Assembly: GCA_913020395.1 (NCBI GenBank)
Contig: CAJWCA010000001.1
Span: 1 to 47,491 of the forward strand
DNA: 47,491 bases
Source: an uncultured Cellvibrionales bacterium
Lineage (GTDB): Bacteria; Pseudomonadota; Gammaproteobacteria; Pseudomonadales; Cellvibrionaceae
Direction: 5' to 3'
Under the pieces are notes generated by a model. That model searched no databases and had not been told where the DNA came from. It worked only from the letters and a program-made list of their open reading frames with translations. The translations under genes were made by a program, and so were the position numbers. This document shows, in pieces, positions 5,382-20,113 of this stretch (position 1 is its first letter; each line of letters starts with the position of its first letter).

Positions 5382-5414
5382 CTAAGAATTGGGGCTACTT
5401 ATCTCCGTCTTCAA

Positions 5415-6179
5415 TTAGTGGTTTGTATAAAGAGAAATAATCTCGTCAATTCTACCGTTGTTAATCAGTCGGCTGTGTTCTTCATCAATGGCCTGAAAAA
5501 CAGCTTTAGAGACATTCTTTTTGCTGAGTGTTATGTAGAGTGGTTGTTGGCCGGAGCTTAAGCGAAATGCCAATTTGATGGTGTCGCCAAGCCCTTTAAC
5601 TTTAATGCGATGGTCGGCAACTCGCTGTGCAACAATGATGGCGTCAAGTCTTCCCAGTGCCAACATAGGGTAGAGTTGCTCGGCACTATTGACATGGACC
5701 TTGTTCATGATTTGGTCCTGGTCTAACCGGGGGAAGTGCGCGGCATTGCTAATTAAACCAACCCGTTCTAAACCGAGCAGGTCTTCGTAGCTTGTCATTT
5801 TGTGCTGATCTTCAGCCCTGGTGTAAACCGCTGTAGGATTCTCGCTAATGTACGGCATAGACAGATAATAAAGATAAGGCTCCCGAGCCTCTCTTTTGTT
5901 AGTAAAACTCAGTATGTCAATTTTGCCCTGTTTAATTTGCTTCAAGCATGAATGCCATGCGCAGTACTTAAACTTCAGTGATATACCCAGGTTTTCGGTG
6001 ATCTCCTTGAGAATCAGGATGTCGATTCCCTCACTGGCGTCCGCATCAAAGTTGTCACCGGGAATGATAAAGGGCGGTGCCGTGTGTACGGCGGCAATGA
6101 GTTCGTTTGTGTTCGCTTTGGGTGTCAGCGCGAGTAGTGCGAAGATTAGGCTGGCCAGGAGAGGGGGCTTACTCATCAT
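5415..6179 (-). CDS. Periplasmic solute-binding protein, family 3 (amino-acid-binding type), orphan with no ABC permease or ATPase nearby
   Basis: Signal peptide MMSKPPLLASLIFALLALTPKA. Size of about 250 aa and a two-lobe SBP_bac_3-like pattern (APPFII, GIDILILKEI, GKIDIL, GRLDAIIV). Confidence 0.7.
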   Translation of the reverse strand: MMSKPPLLASLIFALLALTPKANTNELIAAVHTAPPFIIPGDNFDADASEGIDILILKEITENLGISLKFKYCAWHSCLKQIKQGKIDILSFTNKREAREPYLYYLSMPYISENPTAVYTRAEDQHKMTSYEDLLGLERVGLISNAAHFPRLDQDQIMNKVHVNSAEQLYPMLALGRLDAIIVAQRVADHRIKVKGLGDTIKLAFRLSSGQQPLYITLSKKNVSKAVFQAIDEEHSRLINNGRIDEIISLYTNH

Positions 6180-6426
6180 ATCTTGGTCTGCATCACTGGT
6201 TTGGCTCGGGTATTCGTTTCAAATAATACAACAATTCTGTAATCCACCGGCAAATGGTTTTCAACTTGCGCCCCACAATAGTAATGTGATTAGTCGAATA
6301 GAGTCAAACTTCCCGCGTGGCATATAAACCGTTTGTATTCTCCGTCTATGGCAGGCACTTTTAAACTATAGAAGTCAGTATAAAAAAGTCAAAAGTGTGT
6401 TGATGCATGAAGAGTGTCTTGCAGGA

Positions 6427-6843
6427 TTATTGTTGTTTAACAAACTTCTTAACGATCGCTTTACGTGCGGCTGCCACATCGGGCAGGGTCTTGCTGCGCA
6501 CAGCGCTCACTTCAGTAGCAGTGTACAAGACAAAGTCCGCGGGCAACTCCTTCTTGCTTTTGGTCAGAAGAATCCAGTTTAACAGCTCCGCCAGGGCCTC
6601 GTCGTTCAGTGGAGCATTGGCAGATCCGGGCACCTGAACCAGAAACTCCCTGCCTCCTGGCACACCGATGAACTGACCCACAAAGTTTTGCATGTTGGGA
6701 ACACTGCCTGGCAGGCCGCTGCCATCGCCTTGGTGACAGCCCTGGCAATTGAGCATGTAGTTCGCTTCGGCCCTTTTTTCATCGACGGCAGCGGTACACA
6801 CCATCGTTATGCCTGAGAGAATTACCGCCAGCAGTGTTTTCAT
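6427..6843 (-). CDS. Monohaem c-type cytochrome, periplasmic
   Basis: Signal peptide MKTLLAVILSGITMVCTAA and a single CQGCH haem-binding motif. It is a paralogue of the upstream cytochrome (shared ...DGxGxPGxxPn/l... and ...LxDxLNw/y... blocks). I trimmed the start to the ATG at 6841-6843, because the track ORF extension overlaps the upstream gene. Confidence 0.75.
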   Translation of the reverse strand: MKTLLAVILSGITMVCTAAVDEKRAEANYMLNCQGCHQGDGSGLPGSVPNMQNFVGQFIGVPGGREFLVQVPGSANAPLNDEALAELLNWILLTKSKKELPADFVLYTATEVSAVRSKTLPDVAAARKAIVKKFVKQQ

Positions 6844-6853
6844 TGGGCGCTCC

Positions 6854-7342
6854 TTAAAAAAGTTCAGGGTAGGTTGCTGCCAAGGGTAAGCGCAGGCTTG
6901 CGGAATGGGCAGCGCTGCTTTTAGTGGATTTTGCCTTAATGGCGGCCACCTCCTCTGCGGTATAGGGCTTCCAGTCTTTGGCGACGTGCTTTGCATCCAA
7001 AACCAGAACCGAGTAGTTCAGCACGTCACTTAAGCTCTGATCATCAAGCCCCGCACCTTGGGCTGGCATTACCCCCATGTAGGGCGTACCGCCAACGTTT
7101 ATGGGACCCATTAGCCCAGCGTCTATCACTTCCACCAGGTAGTTGCGACCCAGATCAGTGGCGGCAATACCCGCCATACGATTTTTGAGTGGAGGGAAAG
7201 CCCCTGGAATGCCCTGGCCGTCAGTCAGGTGGCAGGCAACGCAGCGTTGAAAGGGCTTGCTGCCGGCGTGTTGTTTTTCGGCCTGGGCAACACTTGCGCA
7301 GAGTAATATCGCGGCTATGGCTATCGAAAAGCGCGTCGTCAT
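6854..7342 (-). CDS. Monohaem c-type cytochrome, periplasmic
   Basis: Signal peptide MTTRFSIAIAAILLCASVAQA and the CVACH haem motif. Its start overlaps the mauA-like stop by 4 nt (ATGA), which suggests translational coupling. Confidence 0.8.
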   Translation of the reverse strand: MTTRFSIAIAAILLCASVAQAEKQHAGSKPFQRCVACHLTDGQGIPGAFPPLKNRMAGIAATDLGRNYLVEVIDAGLMGPINVGGTPYMGVMPAQGAGLDDQSLSDVLNYSVLVLDAKHVAKDWKPYTAEEVAAIKAKSTKSSAAHSASLRLPLAATYPELF

Positions 7343-7905
7343 TTGTTTGCTCCCTGATCCATTGCCACACCCAATATCACAGCCGTTGAACAGGTGTATA
7401 CATTGCTCTCAGTTCCCAGACACCAGTTGGTATCGTTATTGGTTTGTGCTCTGTAAATAGGTGTATCGTTTTCATTGCGATTGCACATGCAGCGCCCGCA
7501 GCTGGTTTTACCACAACAGTCATTGTAGGAAATGATGTAGTGAACACCGTCAGCGGGGTTTTGACAGGTACCAATCCAGGTAATTGGCGACATTTCGGTG
7601 CCGGGGGGGCAGCTGTTTTGGGTGCCTCCACAACAACTGCATAGGAATCCGTCAATGGCGCAGTAGCGCCAATAGTCACAGCTGGACGGATCGCCAGGGT
7701 CGCCGGCATTGCCGGTTGTTTGGGGTGCGACACCGGGGTAACCATTGCTGGCGCTGGGTGCAGCGCTGGCTCTGGAAACCGGTAGCAGTGGCATGCTTGC
7801 ACCCACAACCATAAGGGAGCCCAGTCGAGTGAGCAGGCTTCTGCGCGAGGTCTGTTGCGCTAGAGAGCGGGAGGATTTCTCGGTTAATTTATCGAGCCAG
7901 GTCAT
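7339..7905 (-). CDS. mauA: TTQ amine dehydrogenase light (small) subunit, MauA/AauA family
   Basis: Long Tat-type leader (SRRSLLTRLG...ASAAP). The Cys-rich mature domain CDYWRYCAIDGFLCSCCGG...CPPGTEMSPITWIGTCQNP...YNDCCGK...GRCMC...NDTNWCLG matches the MauA pattern. Both TTQ tryptophans are in their conserved contexts (ITW, TNWC). Confidence 0.9.
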   Translation of the reverse strand: MTWLDKLTEKSSRSLAQQTSRRSLLTRLGSLMVVGASMPLLPVSRASAAPSASNGYPGVAPQTTGNAGDPGDPSSCDYWRYCAIDGFLCSCCGGTQNSCPPGTEMSPITWIGTCQNPADGVHYIISYNDCCGKTSCGRCMCNRNENDTPIYRAQTNNDTNWCLGTESNVYTCSTAVILGVAMDQGANK

Positions 7906-7914
7906 GTCAGTCTC

Positions 7915-8535
7915 CTACGCCGCGTTGCTGTTGGATGTGCCGGGGGCGGCATTAAAATAATCCTGGATCGATGGGATACCCAGTTCCTTTGACTCAAATA
8001 AACTTTCAATATGTTCACGGGAGTTTACTAGTCCGTGGGAGGCTATGATTCCCTGCTCGTCAATCAATACAGCAAAGGGCAGCTTGGCCACGCCGTATCG
8101 CACACCCAGGTTTTTCGAAGATACATACTGCGCGTCTTCGAGACCATTTTGATGAATGTAGTTTTGATGTAGTGCCAGTTCGCCATCACTGGCGAAAATG
8201 ACGTCCATCCAGCTCGATTCTGCAGACTGGGCGGACCGCAAGCTCGGAAGTAAAGACTTACAAACTGGACAGTCTGGCGACATAAAAAACAGCAGCTGAC
8301 TTCGCCCTTTGGCGGGTTGGCCGGCCGTGATGGTTTTCCCGGAATTAAGGTCCTGCACGGGTACGTGTGGCGCATCTGCGCCGACTTCTAATGTTTGGTT
8401 CATCATCAGGGCGCCGGCGGGGGCCACTCTCTCATAGAGCACACCTATTTGACGGGTTAAGGCAAACACCAATACCGACAGCCCTAATAGCAGTACCCAT
8501 AATACAAGATTAGAAATGATCAGAATGTTATACAT
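7915..8535 (-). CDS. mauD: MauD-type thioredoxin-like protein for small-subunit maturation
   Basis: One N-terminal TM segment, a CPVC redox motif, GVLYERVAPAGALM and LVNSREHIESL blocks typical of MauD, and a position between mauE and mauA. Confidence 0.8.
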   Translation of the reverse strand: MYNILIISNLVLWVLLLGLSVLVFALTRQIGVLYERVAPAGALMMNQTLEVGADAPHVPVQDLNSGKTITAGQPAKGRSQLLFFMSPDCPVCKSLLPSLRSAQSAESSWMDVIFASDGELALHQNYIHQNGLEDAQYVSSKNLGVRYGVAKLPFAVLIDEQGIIASHGLVNSREHIESLFESKELGIPSIQDYFNAAPGTSNSNAA

Positions 8536-9067
8536 GATTGTGTACCTTTTGTTGTAGTTTGTTGTTGGTGCGCAGTTGTGTAAGAGAGTGGTAGAAGAAG
8601 ATAAAAACGACGGTGCTGGCCAGAGCCAGACTCCACGTTCCGAGACTAGTCGGGAGAAGCGTGCTGAAGTATCCCACCCAGCCGGCCATCATTACTAAGC
8701 CGACATTTCGGCCCACTAACCACAGACTGATCCCTTCTGATCGGGCGGGTCCGTTACACCCGCAATCTATATCGACCCTGCCTCTTTGAATATTGATCAG
8801 CATGCCGGCAGTGTAGGCGCTTAGAAGAAAAACCATGCCCGGTAATGCAAACTCTCTAGCAGCAGGAATGAGTAACGCGATGCCCAGTGTTATTTCTAAC
8901 AATGGAAGACTTTGCCCTAAAGGCCTGAGTAAGCCCTCGGGTACAACTCGATAGTTTTCAAGCGCCGCCCGAAAATGTTGAGGTGCGGAAAACTTATGCA
9001 GGGCGCTGTCCACAAACACATAACTTAAACTCAGAACCGCAACGGCGCTTATAAAAGACAGAATCAT
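8528..9067 (-). CDS. mauE: MauE-type integral membrane protein (DoxX-like)
   Basis: A four-TM protein of about 180 aa located between mauB and mauD. It overlaps mauD by 8 nt. Confidence 0.75.
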   Translation of the reverse strand: MILSFISAVAVLSLSYVFVDSALHKFSAPQHFRAALENYRVVPEGLLRPLGQSLPLLEITLGIALLIPAAREFALPGMVFLLSAYTAGMLINIQRGRVDIDCGCNGPARSEGISLWLVGRNVGLVMMAGWVGYFSTLLPTSLGTWSLALASTVVFIFFYHSLTQLRTNNKLQQKVHNHV

Positions 9068-9073
9068 GGCCGC

Positions 9074-10240
9074 TTACCTCTGTGCGTGAATGCTAAAGGG
9101 AGTGGAAGCAACATCGCCAATCATTTTTAACCACTCGCCGTTTTGGGGGTTGTAGATATCCATTTGCATAGAGGCATTAACTACGACCAAGTAAGGTTGC
9201 TTGCCGCTGGTTAATTCAATCGATACGCCCCATTGTTTTAGGGCAAAGCTGTTCACTCGTTTGCGTTTTTTGGGGTCATAAACCCATACTTCAGATCCAC
9301 CGCCTTTATGGCTGCCGTTGTAACCGTCTTTGTGCATGAGAATGTAGATAAGCCCACGGTCATTAACGGTGGCGATTTGCCATCCGCCGGGGCGCCAGTT
9401 TTCGGCTCGCTGCTGTTCGTTTAGCAATGACCAGGTTTGTTTAACAACGGGTGTTTTGCCGCTGAAGTCTATGGGCTGGATCTCGCCCTTGAAGCTTGGG
9501 AACCAGGCGGTTTTACCAATATAAACCGGTTTGTCGAACAGGGGATCGTCGTCTACGTCAAAAAAGGGCGAGACATTTTTCTGGTGTGTCAGGTTTCCTT
9601 TTTTATCGAACTGGGCGCTAAAGAGAGAGCCGTTACTGCACAGTGATGCAAAACCTCGTTTGCCTGCGGGATATACCAGCCCGCAGCCTGGAATCTGCGT
9701 TTCGCTTAAAATTTTACGGGAGTCCATATCAATCATTGTCACAGAAGCGGCGGGGGTAAAATTGAACAGCAATAAAAAGCGATCATTGTCGACCAGCTGT
9801 AAAGTGTATCGGTGGGCAACCACTTGGCCGCGTTTGGCTCCGGGCAGCGCAATTTCACCAATGCGTTTGAGGTGTTTTTTGTCGTAGATGGTTATTACGT
9901 CGGTGCGCTCGCCGCGAGTGCCACGCGCGTAAAATGATTCCGCAACATAGAGTTCTTCTTTGTGTCGGGATTCAATAAAACTGGCAAATTGCGCGGCATC
10001 TAATGCGCCTTTGTAGTTTCTGGTGCCAGGGGCTACGTCCACCAGAGCCACTTTTCCGGCCAATAGTGTTTCAAAATTTGAGTCGTGCACATAAATCAGG
10101 CTTTCGGGGTAGGTATCGGGCATGGTCTCTACGGCCGGCGTGGGCTCGGCAGGCAGATTGGCAGCCAGTACAGTGGCGGCACTCAAGCAGAGTGCCGCAG
10201 CGCTGGTGAATGTGGCTAGATTTCTTGAGAAATCCTTCAT
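9074..10240 (-). CDS. mauB: Amine dehydrogenase heavy (large) subunit, MauB/AauB family beta-propeller
   Basis: Signal peptide, a size of about 390 aa, and beta-propeller-like repeats. It is the first gene of a B-E-D-A order identical to the mau/aau clusters. Confidence 0.85.
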   Translation of the reverse strand: MKDFSRNLATFTSAAALCLSAATVLAANLPAEPTPAVETMPDTYPESLIYVHDSNFETLLAGKVALVDVAPGTRNYKGALDAAQFASFIESRHKEELYVAESFYARGTRGERTDVITIYDKKHLKRIGEIALPGAKRGQVVAHRYTLQLVDNDRFLLLFNFTPAASVTMIDMDSRKILSETQIPGCGLVYPAGKRGFASLCSNGSLFSAQFDKKGNLTHQKNVSPFFDVDDDPLFDKPVYIGKTAWFPSFKGEIQPIDFSGKTPVVKQTWSLLNEQQRAENWRPGGWQIATVNDRGLIYILMHKDGYNGSHKGGGSEVWVYDPKKRKRVNSFALKQWGVSIELTSGKQPYLVVVNASMQMDIYNPQNGEWLKMIGDVASTPFSIHAQR

Positions 10241-10292
10241 AGTGTTTTCCCACTCGGTTGTTGATGTTGGCTTGAGGGTGCAAATATAGTGT

Positions 10293-10340
10293 GGTCGACC
10301 TAAATTAATATGTCAATAGACCTAAAATTAATTTGTGACC
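10293..10340 (-). promoter_or_regulatory. Candidate promoter/operator of the mauB operon: TTGACA plus a TetR-type operator, in two tandem copies
   Basis: The reverse complement of 10293-10316 is TTGACATATTAATTTAGGTCGACC, 20/24 identical to 11158-11181. A second, degenerate tandem copy GACCTAAAATTAATTTGTGACC lies at 10319-10340. No good -10 hexamer is evident. Confidence 0.45.
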
Positions 10341-10386
10341 GACGACCGCGTGAAACGGCCGTAGAAGTGTTATTGCTTAAAGGGGG

Positions 10387-11049
10387 TTATTTGGGGATTT
10401 GACCAGAGCGTATCAGCCATAGGAAGGATTGGCAGGCCATTTCGATTATATTATCGGTTTCTTTCTTCCACGGTTTATTATAACCAATGAACATAGTGTG
10501 GCCCTCCATTGAGGCGGTGACAAAGAGCGCCAGGCGTCGCAATTGCTCTTCGTCTAATGCAGGGTTTAGTTGTCTCATTACATCGATCAAGGTAAGTCGA
10601 TAGCGTTCATACATCTGATCCATGAATTCATCGGCATGATCATTGTGGTTGGCTAAAGACCAGACTTCCGGAAAGAAATAAGTAGTGGTTTTTTTATTAA
10701 GATCGCTAATAACCACTTTAATAATAGCCTTAAACTGTGTCTCCGGGTCTTGCTCAGCCTCGTGTCGCAGTGCTTCAAACTGATTCAGGTAGCGCTGTAT
10801 GCAGTTGTCGAGCATTGCTTTGATCAAATTATCTTTATTGGGGAAATAGTATTGCAGATTGCCCAGTGTGATATTGGCGGCCTCTGCAATTTTTCTCAGT
10901 GAAAAATTGTGGTAGCCCTGATCGGTAATTAATTTCTCCGCAGCCAGCAATATCAATAGTGATGTTTGCTGGCCTTTGCCTGATTTTCCTCGCAAAGGGT
11001 TAGAATTTTCTGTTCTTGATGGTTTGGCCAATGTCATTAATCTCGTCAT
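10387..11049 (-). CDS. TetR/AcrR-family transcriptional regulator
   Basis: The HTH is FSLRKIAEAANITLGNLQYYFPNKDNLIKAML. I trimmed the start to the ATG at 11047-11049, which is preceded by GGAGGAAAAC (a strong Shine-Dalgarno). Confidence 0.85.
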   Translation of the reverse strand: MTRLMTLAKPSRTENSNPLRGKSGKGQQTSLLILLAAEKLITDQGYHNFSLRKIAEAANITLGNLQYYFPNKDNLIKAMLDNCIQRYLNQFEALRHEAEQDPETQFKAIIKVVISDLNKKTTTYFFPEVWSLANHNDHADEFMDQMYERYRLTLIDVMRQLNPALDEEQLRRLALFVTASMEGHTMFIGYNKPWKKETDNIIEMACQSFLWLIRSGQIPK

Positions 11050-11157
11050 TGTTTTCCTCCGGCACATCCGGAGGGGGTTGCTGTTACTGGTGTTTAAGCT
11101 AGTGTAACTGCTTATACCCTCAATAAACATATTAGTTGTGTCAAAAAAACAATACAG

Positions 11158-11191
11158 TTGACATATTAAATACGATCGACCTAATATAGTG
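11158..11191 (+). promoter_or_regulatory. Sigma70-type promoter with an overlapping operator for the TonB-receptor/CoA-ligase operon
   Basis: TTGACA (11158-11163), an 18-nt spacer and TAATAT (11182-11187), about 40 bp upstream of the ATG at 11230. The spacer carries the TCGACC half also found upstream of mauB. Confidence 0.55.
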
Positions 11192-11229
11192 ACAGAATTA
11201 TAAATAACAACATCAACTGGAGAACAGAT

Positions 11230-13593
11230 ATGAGAGTTGCCGATAAGACTAAGATACTTGCTGGCCTAAGTGTCCCCATGCTTGCCTTAAGTGTCGATAT
11301 TCACGCCCTGGTGTTAGAAGAGATTGTTGTCACCGCACAGAAGCGGGAGCAAAGCCTGCAGGATGTCGGCATCGCGGTCACGGCCTACACGGGCGATCAG
11401 TTGAAAGCTCTGGGATACGACAATGCCCAGCAGATAACACAGCAGTCGCCGGGTGTGACCACCATCCAGCCCAACGGTCCTTCCTCCTTTTTTCTCAGTG
11501 TTCGCGGTGTCGCGCAAAATGACTTTTCAGGCGATCACCAGGAGTCACCGGTGGCGATCTATGTTGATGAGGCTTATATCAGTGCTGCATCAGGTGCGGG
11601 TTTCCAGTTGTTTGATATGGAGCGTGTAGAGATATTGCGCGGCCCGCAAGGCACGCTGTTTGGGCGCAATGCAACGGGTGGTCTGGCTCACTATATTACC
11701 AACAAACCCGGAGATGAGGTCGAGGGTTATGTTGACCTGACCATGGGGGAATATGATCAAGTGGTATTGGAAGGTGCGGTGGGAGGCCCCATCAGTGACA
11801 CCGTGTCCGGTAGAATTTCTTTCCTTCACAATGATCACGACGGTTATATTGATAACCGTATTGGCACAGACTTGAATAATGGTGATGACTGGGCCGTGCG
11901 TGGGCATTTGCAAATTGATTTGAGCGAAGATGTGAGCTGGTTGCTGACCGCAAAGGCGGCTGAGCAAGATATTAATTCAGGCTTTTTTAAACACAGTTCC
12001 GCGCGTCAAAACCCAGCGACGGGTTTGGGCGAGCATTTCTCCGGATCTGATTTACAGGGTGATGGCGACTCCCTCGCTACAGCATACCAAGACAGCTCCA
12101 GTGATGTGCATTCCGGAGAATACAACCTGATTGGACACAACAAACTCGAAACCTCAGGGCTGACCAGTAATATCCAATGGTCAAATGGGGGTTTGGATTT
12201 TGCTTTTGTGACTGACTTCTTTAGCCTGGAAAAAGATTACCTTGAGGATTCTGATGCTTCACCGAATGATTTTTTTGCCTTTTATCTAAAAAGTGATCTC
12301 GACCAGTTTTCTCAGGAAGTGCGTGTTAGTGGATCATCCGACTCTCTCCAGTGGGTCGGCGGCATTTATTATCTGAGCGTCGATGGTGATTTTGAGAATG
12401 GCGGCGCCGCCGGCAACTTCTTTGGCGCAGCATTTCCAGGATTTGGGCTGGGTGGCACAAACATCGGTTTATACAATCCTTTTTCAACAGAAACTGATTC
12501 GGTCTCAGTGTTTGGTCAGGCAGAATTTTCGTTGAAGGAAAACCTGACCTTAATTGCGGGTCTCCGGTGGACCAAAGAGAAAAAAGAAACAGACTTTATT
12601 CAATATGCCGCAGAATTTGCCAACCCGGCCACAAGTGATGTGGTTGGCAACGACTTCTTGGGAATAGGCGGAGCCTTGTTTACTTTTAACCCCTCTGAAG
12701 TGACTAACGATCCCGGCGGCACAGCGTTTGGGTTTCCACTGGTGTTGGGTAACCCTGGTGATGCCAAAAAAGACGACGATCTAATCACCGCCAAGCTCGA
12801 GCTAGATTGGCATGTCAATGCAGATACGCTGGTTTATGCCAGTTACAATCGTGGTATTAAAGGGGGGGGATTTAACGCTCCTCTGGATGCGACCAATTTT
12901 TACGATGGCGATCCATCTACCGGTGGTCCTGAAGATATGGCATTTGACGAAGAGGTATTGAATGCCTACGAAACGGGATTCAAATTGTCCTTCGCAGACG
13001 GTCGGGCGCGACTTAATGCCACCGTTTATTATTACGATTATCAAGATTATCAGGCTTTCAGCCTGGAAGGTTTGACAACGTTTGTTTTCAATACCGATGC
13101 GGAAACCTACGGTGGCGAAATCGAATTGCAAGCCTCGCCGACTGAAGGGTTGGATATCATGTTTGGTGCATCTTACATAGACAATACGGTTGAAGATGCC
13201 TATCGCCTGCCTTCCGGTGAAACTCTTGACCGTGTCGCGGTGATGACACCGGAGTGGAGCTTCAATGGACTGGCACGATATGAGTGGGCCGCAATGGGTG
13301 GCAACCTGGCCATTCAGGCAGACTTCAACTACATGGGCGACCATTATTTCCAGTTGAAAAACTCCCCGGTCGGTGAAGAGGATGCTTATACCCTGGTTAA
13401 TGCACGGGTGACTTACACCAGTGGCGATGGCAATTGGAATGTCACGGCCTTCCTGGATAATGCAACGGACGAAGAATATCGCACCATGGTGTTTGACCTT
13501 GCTGGTCCCGCTTCTGGTGGCGGATTTGGTTTGGCGGAAAACTATTATGGCACGCCGCGCTGGTGGGGTGTGACGCTCGGATACAACTGGTAG
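11230..13593 (+). CDS. TonB-dependent outer-membrane receptor
   Basis: Signal peptide, TonB-box/plug LEEIVVTAQKREQSLQDVGIAV, the plug motif RVEILRGPQGTLFGRNATGG, a beta-barrel and the terminal ...TLGYNW. Confidence 0.9.
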   Translation: MRVADKTKILAGLSVPMLALSVDIHALVLEEIVVTAQKREQSLQDVGIAVTAYTGDQLKALGYDNAQQITQQSPGVTTIQPNGPSSFFLSVRGVAQNDFSGDHQESPVAIYVDEAYISAASGAGFQLFDMERVEILRGPQGTLFGRNATGGLAHYITNKPGDEVEGYVDLTMGEYDQVVLEGAVGGPISDTVSGRISFLHNDHDGYIDNRIGTDLNNGDDWAVRGHLQIDLSEDVSWLLTAKAAEQDINSGFFKHSSARQNPATGLGEHFSGSDLQGDGDSLATAYQDSSSDVHSGEYNLIGHNKLETSGLTSNIQWSNGGLDFAFVTDFFSLEKDYLEDSDASPNDFFAFYLKSDLDQFSQEVRVSGSSDSLQWVGGIYYLSVDGDFENGGAAGNFFGAAFPGFGLGGTNIGLYNPFSTETDSVSVFGQAEFSLKENLTLIAGLRWTKEKKETDFIQYAAEFANPATSDVVGNDFLGIGGALFTFNPSEVTNDPGGTAFGFPLVLGNPGDAKKDDDLITAKLELDWHVNADTLVYASYNRGIKGGGFNAPLDATNFYDGDPSTGGPEDMAFDEEVLNAYETGFKLSFADGRARLNATVYYYDYQDYQAFSLEGLTTFVFNTDAETYGGEIELQASPTEGLDIMFGASYIDNTVEDAYRLPSGETLDRVAVMTPEWSFNGLARYEWAAMGGNLAIQADFNYMGDHYFQLKNSPVGEEDAYTLVNARVTYTSGDGNWNVTAFLDNATDEEYRTMVFDLAGPASGGGFGLAENYYGTPRWWGVTLGYNW

Positions 13594-13602
13594 GGGCGTC
13601 TT

Positions 13603-15207
13603 GTGAGCAATTATCTTTCAGAAGTTGAAACCTTCACCTGGGAGCGTCCCAGCCATTACAATTTTGCCCGGGACGTAATCGATCGCTGGGCACAAGACCC
13701 CGACAAGGTGGCGCTGCGCTGGCTCGATGATAATGGGGCAGATTTGGCCCTGAGCTTCGCCGATATCAGCGAACGCTCACGCAAAGTTTGTAACCTATTG
13801 TCGGAGGCCGGCGTTAAACGAGGGGATACCGTTGTTGTGGTGCTGGGCCGTCAAACGGCTTGGTGGGAAGTATTGACTGCGTGCATTCGCATGGGTGTGG
13901 TGGCCTCGCCGGGCACCACTCAGTTATCTGCAAGGGATCTGGCTTATCGCGTAAATGCTGCAAACGCCAGCGCAGTGGTTACCGATTTAATGTGTGCAAA
14001 AAAGATCGATACCATTGTGGGTGAGTGCCCGACATTACAGACACGCATTCTTGTAGACGGGGAGCGTAGTGAGTGGATTGATTACGATCAGGCCCTGCTA
14101 TCTGCTTCGACCCACTTTGAGACTTGTAATACTCAGAGTGATGAAGACGCGCTGTGCTACTTTACCTCCGGTACCACTGGTTACCCTAAGATGGTTATGC
14201 ATTCGCACAGTTATGCCATTGGGCACCAGACCACCGGTCGTTTTTGGTTAGACCTCACACCCGATGACTTGCATTGGAACATCAGCGATACCGGTTGGGC
14301 CAAAGCTGCCTGGAGCAGTTATTTTGGGCCCTGGGCTTGCGGTGCTGCGTTGTTTGTACACCACACGAGTGGTTTCAACCCCGCCAAGACATTAGAAATG
14401 TTATCGGCATATCCTGTGACCACAATGTGTGGTGCTCCTACGATTTACCGCATGTTGGTTCAGCACCAACCTGAAACCCATCAATATCCATACTTGCGAC
14501 ACTGTGTGGGTGCGGGTGAACCGCTCAACCCTGAAATCATTGAGGTGTGGGAACGGGCAACCGGGCTTATTATTCGCGACGGTTTTGGTCAGACGGAAAC
14601 CACTTTGTTATGTGGAAACTTCAAGGGTGTTGAGCCGCGCTTTGGTTCAATGGGCAAGCCGGCACCCGGTATTGAGCTTGCTGTGGTTGACCTCGACGGG
14701 CAACCCGTGGCCACCGGAGTGGAGGGTGACATTGGTGTTAGGGTAAAACCCGTTGCTCCGCAGGGCTTGTTTAAGGAATACAAAGGCGAACCCGAACGAA
14801 CTGCTAGTTGTTTTCGCGGAGATTGGTATTTGACGGGCGATCGGGCAACCGTAGATGAAGATGGGTATTTTTGGTTTGTCAGTCGCGCGGATGACGTGAT
14901 TTTGTCTGCAGGTTATCGCATTGGTCCTTTTGAGGTGGAAAGCGCGCTAATAGAACATGATGCCGTGGCGGAGTCTGCGGTGGTGTCTAGTCCGGATGAG
15001 CAGCGTGGCGAAGTGGTGAAGGCGTTTGTGATATTGAGCCCTGGGCACGATGCCTCAGACACTCTGAAACTTGAACTACAACAACATGTGAAAGCCGTTA
15101 CCGCTCCCTATAAATATCCTCGCAAGTTGGAGTTTGTAGAGGAGTTGCCAAAAACCGTGAGTGGCAAAATTCGACGCATTGAATTGAGAGAGCGCGAGTG
15201 GGCTTAA
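13603..15207 (+). CDS. AMP-forming acyl-CoA synthetase (medium-chain/ACSM-like)
   Basis: GTG start 9 nt after the receptor stop. Motifs: AMP-binding YFTSGTTGYPKMVMHSH, DGFGQTET, YLTGDRA..DEDGYFWFVSRADDVI and PKTVSGKIRR. Confidence 0.85.
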   Translation: MSNYLSEVETFTWERPSHYNFARDVIDRWAQDPDKVALRWLDDNGADLALSFADISERSRKVCNLLSEAGVKRGDTVVVVLGRQTAWWEVLTACIRMGVVASPGTTQLSARDLAYRVNAANASAVVTDLMCAKKIDTIVGECPTLQTRILVDGERSEWIDYDQALLSASTHFETCNTQSDEDALCYFTSGTTGYPKMVMHSHSYAIGHQTTGRFWLDLTPDDLHWNISDTGWAKAAWSSYFGPWACGAALFVHHTSGFNPAKTLEMLSAYPVTTMCGAPTIYRMLVQHQPETHQYPYLRHCVGAGEPLNPEIIEVWERATGLIIRDGFGQTETTLLCGNFKGVEPRFGSMGKPAPGIELAVVDLDGQPVATGVEGDIGVRVKPVAPQGLFKEYKGEPERTASCFRGDWYLTGDRATVDEDGYFWFVSRADDVILSAGYRIGPFEVESALIEHDAVAESAVVSSPDEQRGEVVKAFVILSPGHDASDTLKLELQQHVKAVTAPYKYPRKLEFVEELPKTVSGKIRRIELREREWA

Positions 15208-15244
15208 ACGCAAACGGTTGAACCGCTAAGGAATAAACACGCAA

Positions 15245-16924
15245 ATGAATCTTAAAGAAAGTTATTGTCGTGGCCCCGAGAGTGACAACTTGCTCAATAT
15301 CACTATCGCCGAGGCTTTTGACTCAACGGTGGAGCAGGACCCAAACGCACTGGCTCTGGTGGTTGATCATCAGGGTGTTCGGTTGAACTACCGTCAGTAC
15401 CAGGACAAAATCAACCAACTGGCCGTGGGTTTGTTAAGTCTGGGTATTGGCTCCGGAGACCGGGTTGGCATCTGGTCACCCAATTGCCTTGAATGGTGTT
15501 TAACGCAGTTTGCGACCGCGAAAATTGGTGCTGTTCTGGTGTGTATTAATCCGGCCTATCGCAGTCACGAATTGGCCTACGCCCTAAATAAAGTGGAGTG
15601 CAAGGCACTGGTAAGTGCCGAGCAGTTTAAGGGCAGCCAATATTTGGATATCTTAAAAACTCTCGCCCCGGAGCTCGACAGCTGTGCACCCGGCAAGCTT
15701 GAATCTGAGAAGTTACCGCATCTGAAAACTCTCCTGCGCCTGGGTGATGGGACGACCCCAGGCTTTTTTAATTTCGACGACTTTTGCCATGAGGCGAGCC
15801 CTGAACAGTTGGCGCAATTGGCCGATGTGCAGGCGAGTCTGAATTGTGAAGACGCAATCAATATTCAGTTTACCAGTGGCACCACTGGCAACCCGAAAGG
15901 GGCAACCCTGAGTCATTACAATGTGCTAAACAACGGTAAGTTTGTGGGCGATGGCATGCGCCTGGGGCCAAAGGACAAACTGTGTATTCCCGTTCCTCTC
16001 TATCATTGTTTTGGCATGGTGATGGGCAACCTTGCCTGCATTACGCACGGTTCTGCGGCGGTGTTCCCGAGTGAGGGCTTTGATCCTGAAGCCACATTGC
16101 GGGTTGTTTCAGAACAGAAATGCACGGCATTGCACGGTGTGCCTACGATGTTTATCGCCGAACTCGATCACCCGTCTTTTAAGCAGTTTGATCTGTCTTC
16201 ACTGCGCACGGGCATCATGGCCGGTGCCTCCTGCCCAATTGAATTGATGAACCGCATTATCGAGAAAATGCACATGAAAGATGTGTTAATCGCCTATGGG
16301 CAAACCGAAACCAGCCCTGTGAATCACATGACATCCCACACCGATGCCATTGAGAAACGTGTTGCCAGTGTTGGTAGGCCGGGCCCCCATTTGGAAATTA
16401 AATTGGTGGACAGTGCTGGTGAGATTGTGGCGGCGGGAGAAAAAGGCGAGATTTGTGTTCGTGGTTACGCGGTTATGCAGGGTTATTGGAATGACTCACA
16501 GCAAACAGAAGAAACCATTGACACCGACGGCTGGTTGCACTCCGGGGACTTGGGAATCATGGATAGCCAAGGTTATACCGAGGTGGTGGGGCGCATTAAA
16601 GACATGATCATTCGAGGTGGCGAGAACATTTATCCGCGGGAAGTGGAAGAGTTTTTGTATTCTCATCCGGCGATTAAAGAAGTTCAGGTATTTTCGGTGC
16701 CAGAGGAAAAGTTTGGCGAACAGGTGTGTGCCTGGATTGAGCTCAATGATCACTCTGAGGCCGATGCCGAAGCCATAAAAAACTATTGCCGTGACAAAAT
16801 CAGTTATTTCAAAATTCCACAACACATCCGATTTGTGAGCGAGTTCCCCATGACGGTCACAGGGAAACTCCAGAAATACAAAATGCGTGAGGCCATGATT
16901 GAAGACCTTCAGTCTGCCCAGTAA
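15245..16924 (+). CDS. AMP-forming acyl-CoA synthetase/ligase (second, divergent paralogue)
   Basis: Motifs QFTSGTTGNPKGATLSH, YGQTETSP, HSGDLG..DSQGY..VVGRIKDMIIRGGENIYP and TVTGKLQKYK. Confidence 0.85.
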   Translation: MNLKESYCRGPESDNLLNITIAEAFDSTVEQDPNALALVVDHQGVRLNYRQYQDKINQLAVGLLSLGIGSGDRVGIWSPNCLEWCLTQFATAKIGAVLVCINPAYRSHELAYALNKVECKALVSAEQFKGSQYLDILKTLAPELDSCAPGKLESEKLPHLKTLLRLGDGTTPGFFNFDDFCHEASPEQLAQLADVQASLNCEDAINIQFTSGTTGNPKGATLSHYNVLNNGKFVGDGMRLGPKDKLCIPVPLYHCFGMVMGNLACITHGSAAVFPSEGFDPEATLRVVSEQKCTALHGVPTMFIAELDHPSFKQFDLSSLRTGIMAGASCPIELMNRIIEKMHMKDVLIAYGQTETSPVNHMTSHTDAIEKRVASVGRPGPHLEIKLVDSAGEIVAAGEKGEICVRGYAVMQGYWNDSQQTEETIDTDGWLHSGDLGIMDSQGYTEVVGRIKDMIIRGGENIYPREVEEFLYSHPAIKEVQVFSVPEEKFGEQVCAWIELNDHSEADAEAIKNYCRDKISYFKIPQHIRFVSEFPMTVTGKLQKYKMREAMIEDLQSAQ

Positions 16925-16951
16925 TAATAATGACGAGAAAGGATCAGTACT

Positions 16952-18376
16952 ATGAGTGATTACAAATTATTGATTGATGGAAAACTACTGGCGGTTGAAG
17001 ACAGCTTGCCGGTTATCAATCCCGCCGATGAAACACTGGTGGCGAACTGCCCTCTGGCAACCGGCGCTCATCTCGAAGACGCGGTCGCTGCAGCCAAAAG
17101 AGCGGGACCCGCCTGGGCGGCAAAGTCGTTTGCGGAACGTCGAGGAGCCTTATTAGCGATAGCGGATGTACTCAAGGCTAACGCTGAAGACCTGTCAACA
17201 CTTTTGACTCTTGAGCAGGGTAAACCCAAAGTGCAAGCAGATGCGGAAGTGGCATTCTCCGAAATATTTTGCCGCCATTTCGCCGATCAAAGTCTCGACC
17301 CAGAAGTACTGTTTGAAAATGAAGGGCAGCGAGTGGAGGTTCATCGCAAACCACTGGGTGTTGTAGCGGGCATAATGCCCTGGAATTTCCCTTTGTTAAT
17401 TGCCGTCTACAAACTGGCACCCGCATTGATTGTGGGTAATACCCTGTTGCTAAAACCCGCCCCCACAACGCCATTGTCGGTGTTGAAATTAGGCGAACTG
17501 ATTGCCGACATTCTGCCTCCAGGGGTGATTAATATTCTCACCGACAATAATGATCTGGGCCCTATGATTACCGCCCACAAAGATATCGCAAAAATTTCCT
17601 TTACGGGATCAACCCCCACCGGCAAGGCCATCATGGCGGCGGCTGCACCGACCTTGAAGAGGCTTACGCTTGAACTCGGTGGTAACGATGCCGCCATTGT
17701 GTTGGACGACGTAGATCCGAAACAAGCGGCCCAGGGTATCTTTGGTGCCGCTTTCCTCAACAGTGGCCAGGTTTGTATTGCACTTAAAAGACTCTATGTA
17801 CACGAGTCGATTTACGATGAGGTCTGTGAGGAAATTGCCGTGCTTGCCCGTGGCGCCAAAGTTGCCAATGGTTTTGACAGTGGTGCTGAGTTTGGTCCGG
17901 TACAAAACCGTGCTCAATATGACAAGATTTGTAACTACCTTGTCGACGCTCGTGAACATGGCAATATCATTGCCGGGGGAGAGGTGAGTGATGAACCCGG
18001 GTTTTTTGTGCCGCTCACTGTCGTCAAAGATATCGAGGATGGCACTGCAGTGGTAGATGAAGAGCCCTTCGGCCCAATTCTGCCTATTTTAAAATTCAGT
18101 TCTGAAGCGGATGTTATTGCACGTGCAAATAACTCGGCTTATGGCTTGGGGGGGTCTGTTTGGTCGGCGGACCCGGAACGGGCCAGGCAATTGTCTCTAC
18201 AATTGGATTGCGGCACGGTGTGGATTAATCAGCACTGCGCTTTTGGGCCAAATATCCCATTCCCCCCCGCGAAGGAATCGGGTCTGGGGGTTGAGTGGGG
18301 TGAAGACGGCCTTAAGGAATTCACCGCTATGCAAGTCGTGAATATCAACACGGCCTATCAGGAGCCTGTTCACTAG
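16952..18376 (+). CDS. NAD(P)+-dependent aldehyde dehydrogenase
   Basis: The catalytic Glu lies in LELGGNDAAIV and the catalytic Cys in FLNSGQVCIALKRLYV. Also PWNFPL, FTGSTPTGK and EEPFGPIL. Confidence 0.9.
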   Translation: MSDYKLLIDGKLLAVEDSLPVINPADETLVANCPLATGAHLEDAVAAAKRAGPAWAAKSFAERRGALLAIADVLKANAEDLSTLLTLEQGKPKVQADAEVAFSEIFCRHFADQSLDPEVLFENEGQRVEVHRKPLGVVAGIMPWNFPLLIAVYKLAPALIVGNTLLLKPAPTTPLSVLKLGELIADILPPGVINILTDNNDLGPMITAHKDIAKISFTGSTPTGKAIMAAAAPTLKRLTLELGGNDAAIVLDDVDPKQAAQGIFGAAFLNSGQVCIALKRLYVHESIYDEVCEEIAVLARGAKVANGFDSGAEFGPVQNRAQYDKICNYLVDAREHGNIIAGGEVSDEPGFFVPLTVVKDIEDGTAVVDEEPFGPILPILKFSSEADVIARANNSAYGLGGSVWSADPERARQLSLQLDCGTVWINQHCAFGPNIPFPPAKESGLGVEWGEDGLKEFTAMQVVNINTAYQEPVH

Positions 18377-18557
18377 TGTGGGCGGGCCGGTAGTGCTTTC
18401 GAATTAATCATAAAGCCTCAAATGACCCACGCTGTTTTCTTAGAGAGTTTCCTGTATTGTGGTTATCGCAATACAGGACAAGGACGTGGCAGTGCAGAAA
18501 TGAGCTCCTTCTCCATTTTGTCAATTCTGATCGCAATGTCTACAAAAGGAGTTTTCT

Positions 18558-18875
18558 ATGGGTCAATATATTATTAGTTATCTCGGCGGCAATCAGCCCT
18601 CAACACCTGAAGAGGGCAAGCAGCATTTTGCCAAATATAAAGAGTGGTTATCGTCGCTGGGTGATTCGGTAGTCAGCCCGGCCAATCCCTTTAAAAATAC
18701 TACCGTGGTCAGTAGTGATGGCACGGTAACAACGGGCAGTCAAACGACAATGTCCGGATACACGATTATTACTGCTGAGTCTATGGATAAAGCATTGGAA
18801 GTGGCAAGAGCTTGTCCTTTCCTGGATATTGGTGGATCGCTAGAGGTATCAGAGCTGGTGCAGATGTCGGTCTGA
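18558..18875 (+). CDS. Small YciI/DGPF-like protein (tentative)
   Basis: A good Shine-Dalgarno (AAAGGAG) precedes the ATG. The 105-aa alpha+beta protein has the pattern ...YIISYLGG...KEWLSSLG...GYTIITAESMDKALEVARACPFL..GGSLEV, reminiscent of YCII-related proteins. This is from memory only. Confidence 0.45.
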   Translation: MGQYIISYLGGNQPSTPEEGKQHFAKYKEWLSSLGDSVVSPANPFKNTTVVSSDGTVTTGSQTTMSGYTIITAESMDKALEVARACPFLDIGGSLEVSELVQMSV

Positions 18876-18988
18876 CAACCAAGATAATTAAGCTTTTCGA
18901 AAATGGTGCCGGGCTAGCGATCCTTGGCCCAGCACCCACCCGCGCACGCTCTCCTTGAACAGAGGACCGTGGCGGTTTATTAAGGCAG

Positions 18989-20113
18989 TCAGTCTTCGTT
19001 GATGTAATCCACCACTTCCAGATCAAACCCGGAGATGCCGGCATATTTGATTGGCGCGCCCAGTAAGTGCATTTTTTTGACACCCAGGCTTCGCAAAATT
19101 TGTGAACCTGCGCCCACCTGCTGGAACTGCACGTGTTCTGAACCCGGCTGGGATGACTTCATTTTTTCGCCAAACACTTCCTGAAGTTGCACTTCCAGAT
19201 TCTTTCGGCCGTGGTTTTCGCCTTCGCCTAAAAGAATCAGCACGCCGCTCCCCAGGGATTCAATTTTTTTCATCGCCCGGTGGAATGTCCAGCGGGGGAA
19301 CTTCGCACCCGGTTCAACCAAAGTCAAAAAGTCGCGTACGGGGTCTGGTGCGTGCACTCGCACATATACGGGCTCGGCAACATTAAGCTCGCCTTTCACC
19401 AGTGCGTGGTGAACGATGTCTGTCGCCTTGTCCAGATAGGTATGCAAGGTGAAAGCACCAAAGGTGGTTTCAATCTCCCGGGAGCAGGTGCGCTCAAGTG
19501 TATTTTCGTTGGCCAGTCGGTAGTGAATAAGATCGGCAATGGCCCCCATCTTTAAACCGTGTTCGGCAGCAAATACTTCCAGGTCGGGGCGGCGCGCCAT
19601 GGAGCCGTCGTCATTCATGATTTCTACAATCACCGCCGCGGGTTCCAAACCTGCCAGGCGGCCAAGATCACAGCCCGCTTCGGTGTGGCCCGCGCGGCTG
19701 AGTACTCCGCCCGGCTGTGCCATTAGGGGGAAAATATGCCCGGGCTGAACAATGTCGACAGGTTTAGCGTTGGGGCCCACGGCCGCCTGTACAGTGAGTG
19801 CGCGGTCCGCAGCTGAGATGCCGGTGCTGACACCTTGGGCGGCCTCAATGGAAACTGTGAAGTTGGTGCCATGTACAGACTTATTGCCCGAAACCATGAG
19901 TGGCAATTGCAGTTGCTCGCAGCGCCTCTCTGTGAGAGTGAGGCAAATAAGCCCGCGGCCATATTTGGCCATAAAATTAATGTCTTCCGGGCGCACCAGG
20001 GAGGCGGCAATCAACAGATCCCCCTCGTTTTCACGGTCTTCGTCGTCAACCAGAATCACCATTTTGCCCATTCGGATGTCGGCGATAATTTCTTCGGTGC
20101 TGTTTAAAGCCAT
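18989..20113 (-). CDS. ribB: 3,4-dihydroxy-2-butanone-4-phosphate synthase fused to a degenerate GTP-cyclohydrolase-II-like domain (RibBX type)
   Basis: The N-terminal half has the RibB signature [22 protein letters not shown]...HTEA. The C-terminal half aligns to RibA, but where the Zn-binding Cys motif (VRVHSECLTGD...C.C) should be it reads [13 protein letters not shown], with no cysteines. Confidence 0.9.

Follow-up and report, generated by a model that had tools for sequence, protein, structure and literature searches.

A predicted TetR-controlled module pairs a TonB-dependent receptor with an AADH-like amine dehydrogenase in an uncultured Cellvibrionales bacterium

Tryptophan tryptophylquinone (TTQ)-dependent dehydrogenases oxidize primary amines to aldehydes and ammonia, aldehyde dehydrogenases carry the aldehydes on to acids, and acyl-CoA synthetases activate the acids. 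The described systems closest to the locus analyzed here are the mau clusters of Paracoccus and Methylobacterium/Methylorubrum, encoding methylamine dehydrogenase (MADH), the aau cluster of Alcaligenes faecalis, encoding aromatic amine dehydrogenase (AADH), and the cysteine tryptophylquinone (CTQ) systems, namely qhpADCB (quinohaemoprotein amine dehydrogenase) and the phenylethylamine (pea) genes of Pseudomonas putida U. The aau genes, treated by Chistoserdov in 2001, reportedly run in the order aauB-E-D-A and are followed by a gene for a monohaem cytochrome c. The DNA in question (the window) is a stretch of 47,491 nucleotides, contig CAJWCA010000001.1 of GenBank assembly GCA_913020395.1, from an uncultured Cellvibrionales bacterium of the Cellvibrionaceae. 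Between positions 6,427 and 18,376 it carries aauB-E-D-A with two cytochrome c genes. The open reading frame (ORF) listing and profile searches place a tetR gene upstream of aauB on the same strand, and divergent from both is an operon for a TonB-dependent receptor (TBDR), two AMP-forming acyl-CoA synthetases (ACS1 and ACS2) and an aldehyde dehydrogenase (ALDH). We propose, with a probability of about 0.72, that these genes form a TetR-controlled module for scavenging and catabolizing a hydrophobic primary amine, a reading drawn from sequence and gene context.

AauA and AauB both score above their Pfam cut-offs, which places them in the TTQ-dependent amine dehydrogenase superfamily (MADH/AADH); with mau the locus shares the families PF06433 and PF02975, MauE- and MauD-type helper proteins and the TTQ residues. 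The MADH equivalog cut-offs are missed by both subunits (AauB, TIGR02658, 140.8 versus 454.45 bits; AauA, TIGR02659, 176.8 versus 196.85 bits). A preliminary description of this DNA, made from the letters alone, had suggested placing the two subunits relative to MADH and AADH, and both score closer to AADH. Against solved structures the mature AauA domain reaches 162 bits with A. faecalis AADH and about 120 bits with MADH, and the best solved relative of AauB is the AADH heavy chain (154 bits; MADH, 113 bits). Mature AauA is 59% identical to the A. faecalis light chain and 45% to that of Paracoccus versutus MADH. It has 14 cysteines, as in AADH (MADH has 12), including the AADH-specific extra cysteine pair. 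In an alignment with PDB sequences, its Trp110, Trp161 and Asp129 fall on the SWIGTC, NWC and HDCCGK positions of AADH; we take the tryptophans to be the TTQ pair and the aspartate to be the catalytic residue. The residue before the second TTQ tryptophan is Asn in AauA and AADH and Ile in MADH. The gene order also matches that reported for the A. faecalis aau cluster. In a tree of 63 light chains AauA falls within a large, mostly marine clade, apart from both reference enzymes; the A. faecalis sequence sits elsewhere on a long branch and is not its sister. We therefore call the enzyme AADH-like and regard it as probably not an orthologue of the A. faecalis dehydrogenase.

The predicted electron acceptors also distinguish the locus from both described TTQ systems. 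AADH uses azurin, whereas no cupredoxin domain, that of amicyanin included, was found in any ORF of positions 5415-18376, which hold two cytochromes c instead. No mauF, mauG, mauJ, mauM or mauN is present in the cluster; the absence of mauG is shared with aau. The best solved relative of cytochrome c2 is Thermus cytochrome c552, against which cytochrome c1 scores 89.7 bits. Of 40 TTQ loci from across the order, 38 have a cytochrome c2 homologue encoded immediately after aauA, which makes this cytochrome the most likely electron-transfer partner of the dehydrogenase. Cytochrome c1 is kept in the closest orthologous loci and is missing from many distant ones.

To our knowledge, neither a TBDR nor an ALDH, a pair of CoA ligases or a TetR repressor has been described for aau, and we know of no TBDR in the described pea and qhp clusters. 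Substrate-specific TonB-dependent transporters for cargo other than iron include SuxA (sucrose), MalA (maltodextrins) and DdvT (lignin-derived biphenyl). Like these and PqqU, the window receptor is encoded in a catabolic operon and is apparently co-regulated by a substrate-type repressor, not by Fur; it differs in its predicted cargo, a primary amine. Its translation begins with a signal peptide, followed by a TonB box (EEIVVTA), a plug and a 22-strand-type barrel with a C-terminal tryptophan (...GYNW), and has no N-terminal signalling domain. It scores below every curated siderophore, haem and B12 cut-off (best, the siderophore subfamily TIGR01783, 146.3 versus 223.5 bits), and the closest solved receptor matches the plug domain only (74 bits).

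Receptors related to this one consistently neighbor amine dehydrogenases. Sampling from the receptor alone returned 14 loci, all 14 beside a quinoprotein amine dehydrogenase. Six homologues with 47-76% identity in public assemblies all adjoin an amine dehydrogenase, as do 11 of 11 homologues with at least 48% identity among 121 genomes sampled from the family; homologues at or below 37% no longer show the tie. In a tree of 61 receptors, the window TBDR belongs to a clade of 23 members (support 1.0), of which 15 neighbor TTQ and 8 neighbor non-homologous CTQ dehydrogenases, the two kinds interleaved. Seven further named genomes, Kordiimonas and Colwellia among them, have an amine dehydrogenase within 10 kb of the receptor: Colwellia and Litorilituus carry a receptor about 60% identical with qhpA 8-10 kb away, and in the alphaproteobacterium Kordiimonas sediminis aauA lies about 4 kb from it. 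The receptor gene stands directly upstream of aauB, on the same strand, in loci L015, L017, L023 and L029 and in the second locus on contig C220, and TBDR-aauBEDA loci free of any ACS gene occur as well (L017, L023, L029, L077). Cultured carriers include Pseudoteredinibacter isoporae LMG 25246, with the full TTQ module (L072), the species Pseudomaricurvus alkylphenolicus and P. albidus, with the CTQ version, and Kordiimonas sediminis KCTC 42590, with the TBDR and aauBEDA. The arrangement is more than a coincidence: beyond this genome, the gene set is found in no fewer than five further genera of the family, in additional families and orders and in one alphaproteobacterium.

The CTQ loci indicate that the deaminating enzyme can be exchanged around a constant set of partners. 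The receptor's partner in Pseudomaricurvus alkylphenolicus, P. albidus and others is the CTQ enzyme encoded by qhpADCB, and relatives couple the same TBDR, ACS2, ALDH and TetR set to these genes where the window has aauBEDA; at locus L076, ALDH-ACS2-TBDR is divergent from tetR-qhpADCB, which is the window module with its dehydrogenase swapped. The qhp and pea systems likewise oxidize amines with a periplasmic quinoprotein ahead of a cytoplasmic ALDH; their dehydrogenase is non-homologous, carries CTQ and a dihaem subunit and has a maturase of the radical-SAM type. The sister receptor clade holds the second TTQ locus of the source genome's relatives, and some of its members adjoin genes for an ALDH, a class-III aminotransferase and a major facilitator superfamily (MFS) transporter. 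This variant fits the logic of the module, with an inner-membrane transporter present exactly where the deaminating enzyme is cytoplasmic. We tentatively suggest, at a little under even odds, that the clade of the window receptor is specialized for primary amines, which would be loaded into the periplasm and deaminated there by whichever TTQ or CTQ quinoprotein the lineage has, with no crossing of the inner membrane and with TTQ matured in the absence of MauG.

Several observations were made on neighboring and paralogous receptor loci. The association was considered for all TBDR homologues and does not hold at that breadth: source-genome paralogues on contigs C108, C40 and C46 (about 37-43% identity) have no adjoining amine dehydrogenase. 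The C108 paralogue adjoins genes for an aminoglycoside-phosphotransferase-like kinase and a nucleotidyltransferase, taken as AmgK/MurU-like from reading the sequence. The source genome has a second, paralogous TTQ locus (contig C220:1-7816, L020), in which a TBDR gene cut by the contig end, ALDH, aauB-E-D-A and a cytochrome c gene follow on one strand; its products are 41-59% identical to those of the window, it has no CoA ligase gene, and it probably serves a second amine specificity. At L080 (G022:C60:10500-30400; 4619-13030) a receptor of the sister clade is encoded in the order sulfatase-TBDR-ALDH-class-III aminotransferase-MFS transporter. The locus resembles an amine uptake module in which deamination would take place in the cytoplasm, and its sulfatase may point to an amine that is sulfated. 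A Pseudomonadales metagenome-assembled genome (G516:C1:5307742-5311146; OZ253946.1) has two copies of aauA 3 kb apart directly beside a receptor homologue; the TTQ genes there were apparently duplicated in tandem. In L031 (G342:C56) and L108 (G186:C1), qhp genes lie within 10-20 kb of aau genes or ACS2.

The two operons of the window share a promoter element. Copies of a 24-nt sequence (TTGACATATTAA...TCGACC) lie 53-76 nt upstream of aauB and 49-72 nt upstream of the TBDR gene, each oriented towards its own operon and identical to the other at 20 of 24 positions. With up to four mismatches allowed, just these two copies occur in the 4.4-Mb assembly, against about 0.03 expected by chance. The TBDR promoter is the best sigma-70-like site in positions 5300-19100 (10 of 12 positions matched), overlaps two 13-nt boxes as well (TACAGTTGACATA and TACGATCGACCTA) and stands back to back with the probable tetR promoter. 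The box, a direct repeat of the form TAC-N-N-T-Y-GAC-M-TA, has 29 occurrences genome-wide with both strands counted. Nine orthologous loci each have one to three copies in promoter regions, where the box precedes the TBDR/tetR pair; in four loci from a different genus it also precedes aauB, and in Pseudoteredinibacter loci it stands ahead of both aauB and the TBDR gene. In modules of both the TTQ and the CTQ type, TetR orthologues are encoded beside the receptor. The TetR protein whose gene lies between the two operons most likely controls both. A simple palindromic operator, with the window-derived consensus TTAGGTCGACCTAA, was rejected, as it is not conserved in the orthologues and the direct-repeat box fits better; a genome-wide search with a palindrome-type pattern matched only within a gene on contig C346, taken as chance. 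Nor was a wider regulon apparent: the other matches to the 24-nt element are weak (5-6 mismatches), lie inside coding regions on contigs C49, C161 and C193, and were likewise put down to chance.

Taken in order, the predicted steps would be as follows. The TBDR would concentrate the amine in the periplasm, where the AADH-like dehydrogenase AauA2B2, a TTQ enzyme by family and by prediction an active one, would convert it to aldehyde and ammonium after maturation by AauE and AauD. The two c552-like monohaem cytochromes c would accept the electrons and hand them on to a terminal oxidase. The uncharged aldehyde is expected to pass the inner membrane unaided; no gene for an inner-membrane transporter was found within the module. 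The ALDH has both its catalytic Cys and Glu and no signal peptide, and would form the acid in the cytoplasm, where ACS2 and ACS1, placed there on account of their ATP- and CoA-dependent chemistry, would yield an acyl-CoA for beta-oxidation or liu-type breakdown. The 24-nt element overlaps both promoters, and through it TetR most likely acts as a repressor of the two operons and of its own gene. The preliminary description had listed the receptor, the TTQ dehydrogenase, two cytochromes c, the ALDH and two acyl-CoA synthetases, and each was recovered; tetR and the MauE/MauD-type helpers are additions to that list. Its central claim, a single route from amine through aldehyde and acid to acyl-CoA with a dedicated TBDR, gains support from comparative genomics: the two operons share an element unique in the genome, and TBDR, ACS and ALDH stay with amine dehydrogenases even when CTQ replaces TTQ. 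The same common element is the sequence-level answer to the concern, also raised there, that the two operons might respond to unrelated signals.

The nature of the amine can be approached through the downstream enzymes. The ALDH reaches no curated equivalog (aminobutyraldehyde dehydrogenase, 400 of 615 bits; phenylacetaldehyde dehydrogenase StyD, 385 of 850 bits), and a homologue with at least 38% identity adjoins 18 of 40 TTQ loci across the order. Among solved structures, ACS1 is closest to human ACSM2A (521.6 bits) and to the Methanosarcina acetivorans ligase 3etc (MacsMa, 482 bits), the latter reportedly preferring 2-methylbutyrate; with the NCBIfam model for the branched-chain acyl-CoA synthetase MbcS it scores 544.3 against a cut-off of 850 bits, as a relative and not a member. 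In a 200-genome sample all five ACS1 orthologues (at least 67% identity) lie inside amine modules and none elsewhere. ACS2 passes the cut-off of NF009233 (PRK12583 family; 860.2 versus 832 bits). Its 20 orthologues across the order (53-66% identity) include four in CTQ amine modules and one near CTQ genes, and others adjoin liu genes (L103-L107 and L093; 55-63% identity): five directly end liuR-A-B-C-(D-E) operons for leucine/isovalerate and one is divergent from liuA/liuB. This suggests that the PRK12583 subgroup of ACS2 is an isovalerate-type CoA ligase. A liu cluster also adjoins one close copy of the whole module, and a more distant copy adjoins genes for a branched-chain keto-acid dehydrogenase and an IcmF-like mutase.

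Branched or medium-chain alkylamines (isoamylamine, 2-methylbutylamine and isobutylamine, up to about C10) are favored as substrates because ACS2 orthologues end liu operons and ACS1 resembles medium- and branched-chain ligases; this is our leading candidate, held at somewhat less than an even chance. A diamine such as putrescine or cadaverine was considered in view of the ALDH match to aminobutyraldehyde dehydrogenase and is unlikely, since gamma-aminobutyrate or 5-aminovalerate would not need two acyl-CoA ligases. The preliminary description had expected a bulky, long-chain or conjugated substrate. That expectation is neither borne out nor contradicted, and the ligases point to branched or medium acids of about C4-C10 or to aryl-acetic acids. 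Its suggestion that two ligases mean two product classes is plausible, with ACS2 common to leucine catabolism and ACS1 orthologues seen only in amine modules.

Completion of TTQ in MADH requires MauG. In the 20 genomes with TTQ clusters that were searched (the source genome and 19 related ones), none encodes a MauG at the curated cut-off of 443.85 bits. The source genome has three genes of the cytochrome c peroxidase (CCP)/MauG family (L001-L003, on contigs C38, C307 and C346), which reach 142-180 bits, and seven of the 20 genomes, all nearly complete, have no match at E 1e-30 or better. A CCP-like neighbor is present in only 3 of 40 TTQ loci of the order. TTQ maturation in the AADH-like clade thus seems independent of canonical MauG, being completed either by a divergent enzyme or by a different route.

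Several points weigh against the proposed amine module and its preferred substrates. Receptor transport, the substrate and TetR repression are all predicted from genomic context. Small amines normally pass through porins, which leaves the need for a TBDR unexplained unless the amine is very dilute or larger than assumed. TBDRs are abundant in these genomes, with 84 candidate stretches in the source genome at a first loose look; because of this, adjacency alone is weak, and it is the clade-specific association that carries weight. The link between ACS2 and liu genes is confined to 6 of 20 loci. PaaA, the marker of the phenylacetate pathway, is present in 10 of 10 genomes checked that have an ACS-bearing module, and because of its presence in all ten, and because ACSM-type ligases also accept aryl acids, an aromatic substrate has to be kept in view; we regard aralkylamines such as phenylethylamine as unlikely, though a serious second choice. 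The absence of a cut-off MauG in the 20 genomes leaves TTQ formation, and hence the activity of the enzyme, unexplained. Finally, the source assembly, a metagenome assembly of 4.4 Mb, is 84% complete.

The most serious competing explanation is that the TBDR imports a larger amine-bearing compound, whose terminal CH2-NH2 the dehydrogenase attacks: an amine that is a lipid or has a long chain, a polyamine of the long-chain kind, or an amine set free from amide-bound organic matter. It is the same pathway with the bulky or conjugated amine of the preliminary description. Most known substrates of TBDRs are large or scarce, the substrate channels of AADH-type enzymes are wide and hydrophobic, and both ACS1 and ACS2 belong to medium-chain ligase families. 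We nevertheless consider it improbable: the module has no conserved hydrolase, lipase or other additional periplasmic enzyme, ACS2 orthologues occur in liu operons, which act on a C5 acid, and the nearest characterized relatives of ACS1 favor C4-C11 or short branched acids. That the enzyme is a methylamine dehydrogenase serving methylotrophy or nitrogen scavenging is the least credible of the readings, even with 'methylamine dehydrogenase' as the name of its best Pfam and NCBIfam matches. Methylamine is a very unlikely substrate because the enzyme is AADH-like and formaldehyde needs no acyl-CoA ligase; the downstream enzymes, an ALDH among them that formaldehyde would not require either, imply an aldehyde of at least C2, a further difference from mau. 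The preliminary description had argued against methylamine, and this stands: both subunits score higher with AADH than with MADH and miss the MADH cut-offs, Asn replaces the Ile of MADH before the second TTQ tryptophan, and the cluster lacks amicyanin and the mauF, G, J, M and N genes.

Two further alternatives concern the receptor operon itself. It might be an independent system for the uptake and activation of fatty acids, aldehydes or a siderophore that merely adjoins the amine dehydrogenase operon; the best curated match of the TBDR is a siderophore-receptor subfamily, ACS2 orthologues also occur away from amine genes, and a 'siderophore transporter' lies within a predicted fatty-acid-metabolism operon of the marine gammaproteobacterium HTCC2143 (Tang et al., 2012; PMC3400609). 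The TIGR01783 match remains well below its cut-off, similarity to solved receptors is limited to the plug, TetR control apparently runs through an element common to the aau promoter, the receptor clade always stands beside an amine dehydrogenase, even in loci that have no ACS, and ACS1 orthologues are confined to amine modules, all of which makes independence of the two operons highly improbable. We give still less credence to a receptor whose cargo is not the substrate but a cofactor or metal that the periplasmic enzymes need, be it haem, iron or a quinone such as pyrroloquinoline quinone (PQQ). PqqU, a TBDR for PQQ, is known in other bacteria (PMC12124388). TTQ and CTQ systems both have c-type haems, and yet the sister receptor clade pairs with a pyridoxal phosphate-dependent aminotransferase, an ALDH and an MFS transporter, none of which contains haem. 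Both TTQ and CTQ are built from the protein's own residues and need no imported quinone. The promoter carries a TetR-type element, and no Fur box was evident on reading positions 11050-11229, a region to which no formal scan was applied.

The features of the locus are collected in Table 1. Two gene starts differ from the longest ORFs. The longest ORF of cytochrome c2 (6427-6996) would overlap cytochrome c1 by 143 nt; homologues align from 6846, most likely the true start (MKTLLAV). The TetR orthologues are 219 aa long, and a GGAGG ribosome-binding site precedes MTRLMTL at 11049, where tetR probably begins, its longest ORF being over-extended. AauD has an N-terminal anchor and reaches 181.1 bits with TIGR02661, slightly below the cut-off of 188.6. 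Two adjoining ORFs were considered as members of the module and rejected. An orphan family-3 periplasmic solute-binding protein is encoded at 5415-6179 on the minus strand, just downstream of the cytochrome genes and with no ABC permease or ATPase gene nearby; as a tblastn query it matched none of the orthologous loci. The 105-aa ORF at 18558-18875 has no family match.

Table 1. Genes and promoter elements of the predicted amine module (positions in the window).
Feature	Position	Strand	Evidence or remark
Cytochrome c2, periplasmic monohaem class I cytochrome c	6427-6846	minus	Sec signal peptide; CQGCH motif
Cytochrome c1, periplasmic monohaem cytochrome c	6854-7342	minus	PF00034, 33.4 bits; Sec signal peptide; CVACH motif
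aauA, TTQ-bearing light subunit	7339-7905	minus	PF02975, 169.6 bits; Tat-type (twin-arginine) leader SRRSLL
aauD, membrane-anchored thioredoxin-like accessory protein, MauD type	7915-8535	minus	TIGR02661; CPVC motif; thioredoxin-like Pfam domains
aauE, polytopic membrane accessory protein, MauE type	8528-9067	minus	PF07291, 93.1 bits
aauB, TTQ amine dehydrogenase heavy (beta-propeller) subunit	9074-10240	minus	PF06433, 134.9 bits; Sec signal peptide
24-nt promoter/operator element upstream of aauB	10293-10316	minus	Minus-strand reading TTGACATATTAATTTAGGTCGACC
tetR, TetR-family repressor	10387-11049 (longest ORF to 11130)	minus	PF00440, 48.6 bits; TetR_C_6
TBDR promoter, TTGACA, 18-nt spacer, TAATAT	11158-11187	plus	Overlaps second copy of the 24-nt element (11158-11181)
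TBDR, TonB-dependent receptor	11230-13593	plus	PF07715 (plug); PF00593 (barrel)
ACS1, AMP-forming acyl-CoA synthetase	13603-15207	plus	Relative of ACSM2A, 3etc and MbcS
ACS2, AMP-forming acyl-CoA synthetase, PRK12583 family	15245-16924	plus	NF009233, above cut-off
ALDH, NAD(P)-dependent aldehyde dehydrogenase	16952-18376	plus	PF00171, 468.7 bits

The enzymatic steps are each familiar from aau, from qhp/pea and from funnels that combine an ALDH with a ligase; the dedicated receptor clade and the modular chassis were not found described. Full-text literature searches returned no paper that names primary amines as TBDR cargo or describes a linkage between TBDRs and amine dehydrogenases. The current labels 'methylamine dehydrogenase' and 'iron complex outer-membrane receptor' are probably misleading when metagenomes are interpreted. 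The TTQ clusters of the 20 genomes that lack a cut-off MauG make the completion of TTQ in AADH-type enzymes testable in cultured strains. If the receptor does transport amines, primary amines would be added as a substrate class of TonB-dependent transport, and pathway evolution in these lineages would be modular, with one receptor-ALDH-ligase-repressor chassis serving three different deaminating enzymes. Marine Cellvibrionales, Halieaceae, Colwellia and Kordiimonas could then scavenge nanomolar algal and biogenic amines for carbon, nitrogen and respiratory electrons, which would explain how particle- and bloom-associated marine Gammaproteobacteria could harvest dilute volatile or biogenic amines, such as those formed when Leu, Ile, Val and Phe are decarboxylated.

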